Shown: positions 17,653 to 20,779 of the stretch, in pieces
How the letters are laid out: each line of letters begins with the position of its first letter
How positions within the stretch are numbered: position 1 is the stretch's first letter
DNA from: Escherichia coli
Lineage (GTDB): Bacteria > Pseudomonadota > Gammaproteobacteria > Enterobacterales > Enterobacteriaceae
Strand: one strand, 5' to 3'
DNA length: 64,000 nt
NCBI RefSeq assembly: GCF_044324785.1
Contig: NZ_CP172127.1
Notes under the pieces: model-generated
What the model saw: only the letters and a program-made list of their open reading frames with translations
What the model was told of the DNA's origin: nothing
Database searches by the model: none
Program-made: the position numbers and the translations under genes

Positions 17653-18132
17653 ATGGCGAATTTAATTTATTTAACACTAAATGGTGATAATCAAGGGCTC
17701 ATTTCAAGTGGTTGTTCATCACAACCATCCATTGGAAATAAAGCTCAAACAGCACACATTGATCAAATTATGATTTATGAATTCATGCATGGATTAAATC
17801 GAGATCAAAACGTCAACCATCATCATTTGACAATAAAAAAACCTATAGATAAAGCATCACCCTTATTAGGTAAAGCAATTTGCGACAATGAATTATTGAC
17901 ATGTGATTTTTCCTTTTATCGTACAAATAAATTTGGAATTAATGAACTGTACTATAAAATCAAATTAACTGGAGCAAAGATAAGCGACATTCATGTCTCT
18001 ATATCACATATTGTTGTTGATAACAGCGTTCAACCCGAAGAGTCAGTTTCTTTCAGTTATGAGTCAATTATATGGGAGCATTGTTCCGCTGGCACTAGTG
18101 CATACAGTTTATGGGAAGATCGTCTTCTTTAA
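17653..18132 (+). CDS. hcp: Hcp (TssD) family protein, divergent and AT-rich
   Basis: 159 aa; N-terminal IYLTLNGDNQG and C-terminal SVSFSYESIIWEH fit the Hcp pattern; AAGGAG RBS 8 nt upstream; much lower GC than the upstream core. Confidence 0.8.
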   Translation: MANLIYLTLNGDNQGLISSGCSSQPSIGNKAQTAHIDQIMIYEFMHGLNRDQNVNHHHLTIKKPIDKASPLLGKAICDNELLTCDFSFYRTNKFGINELYYKIKLTGAKISDIHVSISHIVVDNSVQPEESVSFSYESIIWEHCSAGTSAYSLWEDRLL

Positions 18133-18152
18133 AAATATCTGGGATTATTATA

Positions 18153-19049
18153 ATGGCTAACAATATTTTACACTCTTCAACATCAGACAGTGAAAGCAAA
18201 AATACAAGCACTGACAGTACGTTATTTAATGAAAAATTCCCATTTCGATTAAGGCAAGATTTCGCATCAAGAATAACAGAAGATGAAAGTGATTTTTTTA
18301 AATGGAAAAAAATAAGAGAGTTGGCAATTGTGAGCAATCATAAAGAATGGAATAAATATGACTTATTAATTTCAAAATCTGTTAATGAAATCAACATTCA
18401 TTTGTCCAGCACTCCATACTTTCAGCCGTTGGATTGGTATATAATAAAAGCCATGCTCTGGACTGAAAACGATGCGGCAAATACTTCTCAGTGGAATGGT
18501 TATCCATTACAAATTGGTCGTTTTCGGAAAGATAAAGCGATGCCTGCTTTAATCTCTGGTGAAAAATCCACAGCCCTTGTTACCCCACCACAATGGAGAA
18601 ACAAAGCATTCAATGGGTTAAAAGATCCAGAAAGAAATTACTGGGCAAAAGAACAAATAACTGGCTCTCCAGAAGAGAATGTCAAAGCAGCAATTACTTA
18701 CTTAATGATGAAACTTTCTAATACAAAGGAAGAATCAACTATCGATCAATATGACTCAACTCTATATAGCGCCATTGTCCAAAAAGGCGATTTGGCTGAC
18801 AACATCAGAAAAGAGAGAAAAACGACCATACCTAACTTAACGAAAAACAACCCTGGAAAAAATCTCGATAAAATACACCCGGGAGATATTTTATATTATC
18901 AAAAAGCATCCATGAAAGTAATAATTACTGGATGGAAACCTATCACAATAAAAAATGTAGCGATGAATTATAATGGTGGTGGAGATCCCAAGTATGCAAT
19001 AAAACTTCAGTTCGTTTATACATTGCTCACAAAAAACAGAGTGTTATGA
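18153..19049 (+). CDS. Hypothetical protein; candidate T6SS effector (possible peptidoglycan glycosidase)
   Basis: 298 aa from ATG 18153 (alternative ATG 18111); no signal peptide, no Cys; AT-rich; directly downstream of hcp and coupled to a downstream signal-peptide protein. E…GxxQ…AxxYL motif spacing weakly resembles GH23-type lysozymes. Confidence 0.6.
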   Translation: MANNILHSSTSDSESKNTSTDSTLFNEKFPFRLRQDFASRITEDESDFFKWKKIRELAIVSNHKEWNKYDLLISKSVNEINIHLSSTPYFQPLDWYIIKAMLWTENDAANTSQWNGYPLQIGRFRKDKAMPALISGEKSTALVTPPQWRNKAFNGLKDPERNYWAKEQITGSPEENVKAAITYLMMKLSNTKEESTIDQYDSTLYSAIVQKGDLADNIRKERKTTIPNLTKNNPGKNLDKIHPGDILYYQKASMKVIITGWKPITIKNVAMNYNGGGDPKYAIKLQFVYTLLTKNRVL

Positions 19050-19501
19050 GAATGGGAAAAATAACAATTATTCTACTGCTTACATTCTCATGTACAAAAG
19101 GTCTGGCATTTGACATTTCCATGTCTAAAGAATGTAGTGGCGTTGATGAACTTGAATTTGTTGATTGTGTTAAAAACTCATTTATTATGAGCACTATTAC
19201 ACTTAAAAAAGCAGAAGCAAATATAAAAGAGAAAATTAAAAAATGGAATAACGATGAGGACGAAGCAATAAGAAAAGAAGCAGTTATTTCTTTAAAAAGA
19301 CTAGAATCTTCTAATCGGGAATTTATACGTTACAGATTTGCTCAATGCTCTTTTGCTCTAACCTGGGGGGCCAGAGTAGGACGCCTGGCATTCTCTCGAC
19401 TATATCCATGCTATACTGAGTTAAACAAAATAAGAGCCATGCAACTAAACAATGCTTACATTTCAGATTTTCAAAATCCAGATGAGATATCCAGCAAATG
19501 A
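19046..19501 (+). CDS. Small periplasmic protein, candidate immunity protein (DUF1311/LprI-like pattern)
   Basis: 151 aa; ATGA overlap with the upstream gene; cleavable signal peptide (ITIILLLTFSCTKGLA); four Cys and a KKW…RYRFAQC…G…YPCYTELNKIR pattern reminiscent of LprI-type lysozyme inhibitors. Confidence 0.6.
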   Translation: MRMGKITIILLLTFSCTKGLAFDISMSKECSGVDELEFVDCVKNSFIMSTITLKKAEANIKEKIKKWNNDEDEAIRKEAVISLKRLESSNREFIRYRFAQCSFALTWGARVGRLAFSRLYPCYTELNKIRAMQLNNAYISDFQNPDEISSK

Positions 19502-19854
19502 TTATTATAAAATTAAGATTAACATTACTATTTATACTGGCCACAATTACATATTCAGTACAATCAGACGAATTCGATGATCAAACCACTTACACGCAAT
19601 ACCGTTATTTTTCCACAGCCATACCAGAAGATATACGTAGATTTATGTTCTACGTAGATTTGTGCTTTGTAGATTTAGCATTCGATATCGAAACTGACTC
19701 AATGACAGCTAAAAATGATATTATTAATGAATGTACCCCATTAAAAGAAAGAAACAAAACATTAAAAGAAAAATATAAAAAAGATGAAGAGATAATAGCA
19801 ATTCTTTCCATTGCAGATGATACCATTTTAATTTATGAAGAATTAAAAAAATAA
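19498..19854 (+). CDS. Small secreted/membrane protein, possible second immunity or orphan immunity gene
   Basis: 118 aa; ATGA overlap with the previous gene; N-terminal hydrophobic signal (LRLTLLFILATITYSVQS); AT-rich; Lys/Glu-rich C-terminus. Confidence 0.5.
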   Translation: MIIIKLRLTLLFILATITYSVQSDEFDDQTTYTQYRYFSTAIPEDIRRFMFYVDLCFVDLAFDIETDSMTAKNDIINECTPLKERNKTLKEKYKKDEEIIAILSIADDTILIYEELKK

Positions 19855-19978
19855 CTCACATGCAATTCACTGGCAATATATATTATAATTTTATAAAAAA
19901 TCATATTTACATTATAGAAATACTCAGCTCCTGTTTGCTGCCCGCCCTAAACTACAGGCGGCAGCATAACAATAACGA

Positions 19979-20779
19979 TTACTGGAATCGACTCACCAAG
20001 TCTTTCACCATTGATACATATGTTTTTTGTTTCAAATTAAACAGTTGCACTTCCGTAACATGGTCATTTGATAGTTCTTTATTGCTCGTTTTTGTTATTC
20101 CAGCCGGCGGAAAAATTACTCTCGATTCATAATTCACCGGCGACCAGGTAGCCCACTCACCTGTTGCCACATCCACCAGCGTGAAACGTACCAGGTAGCG
20201 CAGGGAGATAGCGTCAGTGAGTTTTTCATTTTTATAGTCGGACCATACTGTTGATTTCAGCACAGAGTCATATTTTCCTGTCTGCAACGTATCATGGTAA
20301 ACAATAATCGCTTTCTGATGCCCTTTCGCAGCCACAAAACGCAATGCCTGCATCCAGTTCATATTTTCAGCACTGGCAACATCCTCGTTCTCATTTTTAT
20401 CTTTATTTTTGTTACAAGTCAGAGGCTTTTGCCTGTCCGGGATACCAGAGAATGTGGAAACAGTATAATATTTTCTCATCTCCTCCTGCATAATGGTCTC
20501 CGGTGCGCGACTGCCAGACTGAACAAGTATTACAGGAGAACTGAGGGGCACACGAAACTCATCTCCTTCAAGCGCAGCTTGAATATCCTCCTCGGATACA
20601 GCCAGAGTGGTTTCATTACCGAATAAATCTTTGTCTGTCAGTTGTGGGGGAGTGTTTTTATTAATATTACTTTGTGTAACTTGAGCTTTTTTCTTTTTTT
20701 CATCAATAGGAGATTCAGAGGCACATCCTGCAAGCAGCGAGAATAACACACATATGCAACAAACCTTTTTTGAATTCAT
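19979..20779 (-). CDS. yafT: Lipoprotein YafT
   Basis: 266 aa; lipobox (LLAGC); lies next to tRNA-Asp aspV as yafT does in E. coli. Confidence 0.8.

Follow-up and report, generated by a model that had tools for sequence, protein, structure and literature searches.

What does a third small gene do behind a type VI secretion system (T6SS) effector and an immunity gene that are currently described as a pair? The question arises in a 64,000-nucleotide stretch of an Escherichia coli chromosome (contig NZ_CP172127.1, assembly GCF_044324785.1), referred to here as the window, which contains the 3' end of the T6SS-2 island at tRNA-Asp and yafT. In the window, hcp is followed by an effector gene (E), an immunity gene (A) and the gene in question (B), which encodes a protein of 118 residues. 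B belongs to the immunity side of this effector locus and is translationally coupled to A. A fuller reading, to which we give about even chances, would make B the second of the two genes in a periplasmic immunity cassette, probably as the partner of A.

Gene order provides the first line of evidence. Loci were typed with hidden Markov models (HMMs) for Hcp, E, A and B; 30 were found through B, and six more were retrieved with two different A proteins, which countered the bias of a B-based search. All 36 module loci have the order Hcp-E-(A-B)n, with n from 1 to 4. Across the 30 B-derived loci, 58 of the 62 B matches directly follow an A match, and B comes next after 58 of the 60 A matches; the exceptions are split or fragmentary matches of either gene and one lone A match in locus L022. 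Every A is followed by B in the six A-selected loci. The distance from the A stop codon to the B start codon is −4 to +10 nt in 52 of the 58 pairs, and in the window, as originally predicted, the ATG of B overlaps the TGA of the 151-residue open reading frame (ORF) that ends at 19501 (ATGA). Among 5426 complete E. coli genomes, B is present in 364, and these same 364 have A plus B, with one copy of each, always chromosomal. Being encoded beside the effector and co-inherited with it is one part of the operational definition of a T6SS immunity protein, and B has both properties.

The second line of evidence is that E, A and B diversify together. Their pairwise identities correlate closely (r = 0.95-0.98 over 17 unique triples) and the three diverge at similar rates, with identities of 25-48% between module types. 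Clusters of A and of B form a nested table with zero cross-type pairs among 35 unique pairs. Moreover, orphan A-B cassettes that have no adjacent effector (in L012, L013, L016 and L029) keep both genes intact, and retention of B in this setting points to a function in the attacked cell and not in effector loading. The survey of related genomes for one-gene versus two-gene cassettes that the original prediction had proposed finds both genes together, orphan cassettes included. That prediction had also suggested a second immunity protein, either for a different toxin or as an orphan immunity gene; the assignment to the immunity side holds, whereas the different-toxin or orphan part finds no support, since B always accompanies A and co-diversifies with both A and E.

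In some loci a single effector is followed by as many as four A-B cassettes in tandem, with alternating subtypes (L012 3136-7066; L013; L016 5404-10349; L024/L025; L029). The units of an array are always separated at the spacers between one pair and the next (roughly 40-320 nt in the examined arrays), and no pair is split. Citrobacter portucalensis and Kluyvera have two or three E-A-B units in series.

The ORF at 19498-19854, with its ATG start and 118 codons, is borne out, and B is a genuine coding gene under purifying selection. Between the window and the common allele (Santai), B has 12 differences, seven synonymous and five non-synonymous, which corresponds to a ratio of non-synonymous to synonymous substitution rates (dN/dS) of 0.18 within E. 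coli (binomial P = 0.0036 for the synonymous count). The other five frames over B show a non-synonymous excess. In the same allele comparison the neighbouring genes have dN/dS values of 0.26 (hcp), 0.11 (E), 0.16 (A) and 0.15 (yafT). Between genera, B (0.13-0.35) falls in the same range as A (0.11-0.30). The Prokaryotic Genome Annotation Pipeline (PGAP) leaves B unannotated in many genomes.

B also defines a protein family. Three true distant homologues, 122-124 residues long and 33-39% identical (29-39% in another count of the same search), were recovered by an exhaustive HMMER scan that covered 1.84 billion representative proteins, together with three spurious eukaryotic repeat proteins. At E ≤ 0.01 a profile search found 67 proteins, at least a dozen of them close E. 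coli variants or fragments of B; the named sources are E. coli, E. albertii, Citrobacter, Salmonella, Hafnia and Kluyvera. A scan of a genome collection added Atlantibacter, Superficieibacter and Yokenella as carriers; it confirmed just four loci, because the confirmation reference is the divergent E. coli sequence, and the taxonomic breadth of B rests mainly on the profile search and the loci derived from it. Homologues are present in at least ten enterobacterial genera. Family members combine a signal peptide, a helical domain of about 95 residues and a C-terminal ...DDT..IY helix; residues P43, C56, C79, K92, Y93 and L103 are invariant, and the consensus includes the motifs MPQDLQDFFE.ADAC and KYKNNKDYS.RLTVYDDTIIIY. 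The window protein fits this description. It scores 104.8 bits against the family HMM (E = 2.8e-31), and its gene lies on the same strand as, and directly 3' of, a DUF1311 gene within an Hcp-E-(A-B)n block, which is the family context.

As a single sequence, B has no Pfam match even at E ≤ 10 and no match in NCBIfam, PADLOC or a sequence-profile search of the PDB, and PHROGs returned just a 0.019 match to a family of unknown function. The PADLOC and PHROGs results also led to rejection of B as an anti-phage defence or phage protein. Within Pfam, TssO (PF17561, a component of the Bacteroidota T6SS-iii) matches weakly, with seven of 38 B-family members at E ≤ 0.001 and a best value of 5.5e-5; the window protein and member P0026 do not match it. 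Four family members match DUF4364. These TssO and DUF4364 matches may reflect compositional bias or a real remote relationship. One protein cluster, P0048 (152 residues), matches both family profiles, that of B at 5e-31 and that of A weakly at 6e-7; a mis-called start may explain this, as may read-through or fusion that joins the tail of A to B in a single ORF.

The hydrophobic, signal-like N-terminus noted in the original prediction is confirmed: MIIIKLRLTLLFILATITYSVQS/DEF contains K/R and then an 11-residue core with a Kyte-Doolittle value of 2.43. The core has no acidic residue, and V-Q-S occupies positions −3 to −1. By this heuristic analysis of n-, h- and c-regions, 35 of 38 family members have the same layout, and B is predicted to be located in the periplasm. 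The two invariant cysteines, Cys56 and Cys79, probably form a disulfide. A single-sequence AlphaFold2 model of B consists of the signal-peptide helix followed by helices at residues 44-62, 69-79, 82-92 and 97-117, with predicted local distance difference test (pLDDT) values of 58-93 in 10-residue blocks of the mature part. A Foldseek search of the PDB with this model found generic helical bundles only, at E > 1.

Structural modeling further suggests that A and B form a heterodimer. A (GGGGS)5 linker was placed between mature A and mature B, and the fusion was modeled with AlphaFold2 from 27 paired alignment rows, resulting in a predicted template modeling (pTM) score of 0.74. About 50 of the 246 residues, in the linker and tails, have pLDDT below 50, and the cores reach 85-97. 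A pTM of 0.74 with one fifth of the chain disordered indicates that the two domains are confidently placed relative to each other. The folds differ in the models, with three long helices in A and four shorter ones in B. When the fused model was searched against the PDB and AFDB50 with Foldseek, DUF1311 proteins matched the A part only, the B part matched only B, and no natural A-B fusion protein was found.

The other two members of the module have published counterparts. The window E is orthologous to ancestral Etse4 (etse4ori), as found in enterohemorrhagic E. coli (EHEC) and its O55:H7 ancestor. This is the same locus as Etse4/Etsi4 of EHEC EDL933 (Z0246 and Z0245; PMC12981562), with about 98% protein identity for E and about 96% for A. 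Etse4 is toxic in the periplasm and not in the cytoplasm, and co-expression of the DUF1311 protein Etsi4 restores growth; the assay used a toxic 198-residue Etse4 fragment in BL21 (PMC12981562). A more distant relative, about 35-37% identical to the window E, is SED_RS06235 of Salmonella Dublin pathogenicity island 19 (SPI-19), which has a LysM domain and a transglycosylase domain by HHpred and is called a bicistronic effector-immunity pair with the LprI-domain protein SED_RS06230; the pair aids interbacterial competition, with a 1.5-fold phenotype (PMC8867033). This locus has the same Hcp-E-A architecture, with a type-2 module. No third gene is described in the searched passages of PMC12981562 or PMC8867033. 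Etse4/Etsi4 is treated there as two genes, and B is frameshifted in those strains, whereas E, A and B are all intact in the window. Similarly, whereas the S. Dublin module is described as bicistronic, a B homologue follows A in the examined Salmonella loci (L019, L026/L027).

B also decays in some Salmonella genomes. In Salmonella enterica L019 (8001-8390; protein P0041), B diverges wholly after ...KDYSARL and loses the TVYDDTIIIY helix, and in the second cassette of this locus B is fragmentary.

Sequence and structure comparisons of E and A agree with these published roles. LysM Pfam matches occur in 2-4 of 11 E-family members, E has a PHROG endolysin match (5.8e-4), and a sequence search of the PDB with E found no match. 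A has a Pfam LprI match (E = 0.0029), four cysteines are invariant in its family, and its model matches the DUF1311 crystal structure 3gi7 (TM-score 0.78, target-normalised; probability 1.0) as well as many DUF1311 proteins in AFDB. In the window E has an isoelectric point (pI) of 9.35 and a charge of +9, mature A a pI of 8.4 and a charge of about +2, and mature B a pI of 4.4 and a charge of −9.

The E ORF is intact in the window, Santai and O55:H7 strain CB9615 and is split in O157:H7. It has an internal stop in strain N3, which is 99.8% identical to the window. PGAP splits E into a 219-nt "partial" pseudogene and a 597-nt coding sequence (CDS), even where the ORF is uninterrupted.

A mechanism for a two-gene cassette can be proposed from these properties. 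B would be exported via Sec and its signal peptide cleaved after residue 23, to give a strongly acidic, four-helix mature protein of about 95 residues (11 kDa) with a Cys56-Cys79 disulfide. Mature B would bind A, and the resulting heterodimer would neutralise the basic effector in the periplasm with greater efficacy or specificity than A by itself; the charges of B, E and A are counted in support. The cassette would in this way serve an Hcp-linked, LysM-containing, lytic-transglycosylase-like T6SS effector, and B would be auxiliary and not essential.

Several observations weigh against this proposal. In the only published functional tests A alone is sufficient, as Etsi4 rescues BL21 (PMC12981562); the O157:H7 source strain of that test has a frameshifted B, and BL21 has no module. 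O55:H7 strain CB9615 also combines an intact E ORF and A with a frameshifted B, which indicates that B is dispensable there. An intact 357-nt B was present in six of 40 evenly spaced E. coli copies, a sample dominated by the O157:H7 clone. The predicted A-B complex is a single linker-fusion model from a shallow alignment, without predicted aligned errors or a mismatched-pair control. Finally, correlated divergence and strict subtype pairing would also be expected from tight physical linkage alone.

A stronger version of the cassette is that immunity requires an obligate A-B heterodimer in which B sets the specificity or potency of protection; this we regard as tentative, with the odds clearly against it. 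If true, no periplasmic T6SS immunity complex built from two subunits would precede it, and protection assayed with Etsi4 or SED_RS06230 as single genes would be underestimated or misassigned.

Rather than acting through A, B could be an independent second immunity protein that binds E at another surface, so that E, A and B form a ternary complex and either protein alone partly protects. We consider this unlikely, yet several observations favour it: the divergence of B tracks that of E as closely as the divergence of A does (r = 0.98), a strongly acidic B would face a strongly basic E, and orphan cassettes retain B. There is also a precedent in the Tde5-Tdi5a-Tdi5b system of Pseudomonas aeruginosa, where two structurally unrelated immunity proteins are likewise encoded at the locus of one T6SS toxin, bind it independently and form a three-protein complex (PMC13392607). 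The Tde5 toxin is a cytoplasmic DNase (PMC13392607), whereas the toxin here acts on the periplasmic cell wall and a contact between A and B is predicted by modeling. That contact argues against independence, though it would be compatible with a ternary complex. Furthermore, an S. Dublin strain in which E and A were deleted and the downstream DNA was kept was still sensitised 1.5-fold (PMC8867033). If its B was intact, B alone gave incomplete protection; the examined Salmonella copy P0041 has an altered C-terminus.

Somewhat less probable again is a non-inhibitory role, in which B would be a periplasmic accessory of A: a folding or stability partner, a regulator that keeps A inactive until it is needed, or a factor that retains A close to the membrane or the peptidoglycan. 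Such a role would account for the strict A-B pairing, the translational coupling and the contact predicted between the two proteins, and the finding that over-expressed A works alone in the rescue assay is as expected if B merely tunes the level or stability of A. An accessory protein, however, need not diverge as fast as E, though co-evolution with a fast-evolving A could explain this, and searches of Pfam, NCBIfam, the PDB and Foldseek revealed no similarity of B to known chaperone families.

An improbable reading is that B confers immunity to a different, unlinked toxin. Orphan immunity genes are known to form arrays behind hcp; the hcp island of Pantoea agglomerans, for instance, accumulates arrays of LprI-domain and other orphan immunity genes, encoding small periplasmic proteins, downstream of an hcp-linked peptidoglycan-targeting effector (PMC9796082). 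On the other hand, B never occurs without A in the 58 pairs and the A-selected loci, where no B-only cassette was seen, the subtypes of A and B are strictly matched, and the repeat unit of the arrays is always A-B. The remaining reading, that B is a decaying remnant, either a partial, degenerate copy of A or a spurious AT-rich ORF that has no present function, is highly improbable: B resembles A weakly in BLASTP, is frameshifted in most sequenced E. coli carriers, and is AT-rich, repeat-rich, often unannotated by PGAP and without a Pfam family, but purifying selection acts in the B frame only, both within E. coli and between genera, its length, motifs and two cysteines are conserved over at least ten genera, the A-B profile comparison is negative, and the predicted folds differ.

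Related assignments were considered and rejected. The original prediction saw no similarity between the two small proteins, and this is upheld: the BLASTP match between A and B has E = 0.012 over a short stretch that includes the signal-peptide region of A, and hhalign comparison of the family alignments gives a probability of 0.5%. On these grounds B is not a degenerate copy of A. Neither is it a member of DUF1311/LprI (PF07007), as judged from the same profile comparison, the absence of a Pfam match and the presence of two cysteines rather than four. The other role originally suggested for B, a membrane-anchored adaptor, finds no support, given the cleavable type of the signal peptide, two invariant cysteines that fit a periplasmic disulfide, and retention of B where there is no effector to load. 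No Pfam or NCBIfam match to T6SS adaptors or chaperones (DUF4123, DUF1795/Eag, DUF2169) was found. To our knowledge, known T6SS adaptors are cytoplasmic. Carriage on plasmids or phages was likewise rejected, as tblastn with a clade-2 B protein found no match in 72,556 plasmids and the E. coli copies are all chromosomal.

What was already known at this locus is the E-A pair; what is new is the third gene, whose family is unannotated or "hypothetical" and has no recognised relatives. B resembles the DUF1311/LprI lysozyme-inhibitor family (PF07007; 3gi7), whose fold A shares, in being small, helical, predicted to be periplasmic and cysteine-containing, and has no sequence, profile or fold relationship to it. 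Other tandem immunity arrays include Rap1a/Rap1b in Serratia and the three Sel1-like immunity paralogues of PldB in P. aeruginosa. In such tandem or orphan arrays, including that of Pantoea, the repeats are paralogues or independent single-gene immunities, whereas the unit here is a fixed heterologous A-B pair, which is unusual among T6SS immunity loci. The Etse4/Etsi4 and SPI-19 LysM/LprI modules, now described as pairs, look like three-gene units in which annotation pipelines often miss a real gene, B, and immunity in such modules may be a two-protein function. We know of very few precedents for two-protein immunity. The A-B pair also offers a simple marker for immunity cassettes and arrays in enterobacterial genomes, and interest in the locus would grow if an A-B complex or a role of B in specificity were confirmed.

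The B coding sequence is rich in repeats, although not quite in the way first described. The original prediction reported an internal near-duplication, and short direct repeats do exist; the pair that had been named, 19651-19665 and 19666-19680, matches at only nine of 15 bases. Instead, the core GTAGATTT occurs three times (at 19637, 19654 and 19669), and the exact 11-mer TACGTAGATTT occurs twice, at 19634 and 19651, with an out-of-frame offset of 17 nt. Codon shuffles make these marginal, with values of about 0.02 (exact run) and 0.09 (15-nt window). Locally, the strongest repeat, absent from the original prediction, is an in-frame 21-nt tandem whose copies agree at 18 of 21 bases (P = 0.006, codon shuffles). 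A structural or functional role for the 15-nt duplication was rejected, because distant homologues are equally long at this point without the repeat; with no added residues relative to these homologues, the repeat region is not a domain duplication.

The repeats and A-runs of B are indel hot spots. O157:H7 strain F8798 has lost exactly 17 nt between two TACGTAGATT copies, and one database variant has lost 15 nt, which turns YVDYCFVDLAF into YVDLAF. The 21-nt tandem varies in copy number, with three ERNKTLK units in P0013 and 36 nt missing from P0004. In O55:H7 and O157:H7 (L002, L005, L006) B is frameshifted by the loss of 1 nt from an A8 run, and a +1 insertion in the terminal A7 run of strain TUM13936 lengthens the ORF. 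B is inactivated repeatedly at such slippage-prone repeats and A-runs, and one example is the O55:H7/O157:H7 lineage, with its reportedly degenerating T6SS. PGAP leaves this position without a CDS in O55:H7 and O157:H7 genomes with a frameshifted B. In the window allele, a G at 19783 interrupts the run, leaving A6, which is less prone to slippage. As TACGTA is palindromic, the first two repeat copies (19634-19656) can also form an 8-bp hairpin, which a terminator scan flags on both strands.

The features of the locus are collected in the table below. Of the 363 complete E. coli genomes that span the region 17600-20200, the 15 with the best matches share 97.8-99.8% identity with it. In near-identical genomes hcp is annotated as "Hcp family T6SS effector", and the Pfam family T6SS_HCP is recorded on its orthologues. 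For E, the ORF list gives a start at 18111, whereas the MANNILH start lies at 18153.

Features of the T6SS-2 island 3' end in the window (positions count from the first nucleotide of the window)
Feature	Position	Strand	Remark
tssM	12742-16266	+	T6SS core gene
VasL-domain gene (vasL)	16187-17626	+	
hcp, 159 aa	17653..18132	+	first gene of the low-GC hcp-E-A-B block
effector gene E, 298 aa from the MANNILH start	18153..19049	+	"peptidoglycan-binding" annotation; published Etse4
immunity gene A, 151 aa	19046..19501	+	DUF1311/LprI fold; Etsi4
gene B, 118 aa, ATG start	19498..19854	+	start overlaps A stop (ATGA)
predicted Sec signal peptide of B, residues 1-23	19498..19566	+	predicted cleavage after VQS; heuristic
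three short direct repeats, core GTAGATTT	19634..19680	+	third copy 15 nt beyond second
Cys56 codon of B	19663..19665	+	family-invariant in alignments
Cys79 codon of B	19732..19734	+	family-invariant in alignments
in-frame 21-nt tandem, PLKERNK / TLKEKYK	19739..19780	+	copies 19739-19759 and 19760-19780
A6 run	19777..19782	+	A8 in common allele (19783 = A); site of 1-nt deletion in O55:H7/O157:H7
GC-rich hairpin between convergent B and yafT	19932..19971	.	plausible bidirectional terminator
yafT, lipoprotein gene	19979..20779	-	island boundary beside tRNA-Asp; converges on B

The hcp-E-A-B block has a GC content of 30-35%, compared with 55-58% for tssM and vasL, and within 17400-19900 it has sharp edges against the T6SS core. 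This composition suggests that hcp and its cargo cassette may have moved, or been acquired, as a single module. Promoter and terminator scans around B found no more sites than in shuffled sequence, and the only terminator call was the palindromic repeat inside the B coding sequence. For the GC-rich hairpin between B and yafT, the whole 131-nt region is not exceptional (z = −1.2).

In BL21(DE3) the position beside yafT is occupied by a 111-nt pseudogene (L036 26187-26297, minus strand), followed by an IS1 element. One frame of it ends in ...FLARKIQQLNN*, like the C-terminal helix of the A (DUF1311) family and not like B, and the pseudogene looks like a remnant of a different, deleted variant of the module.

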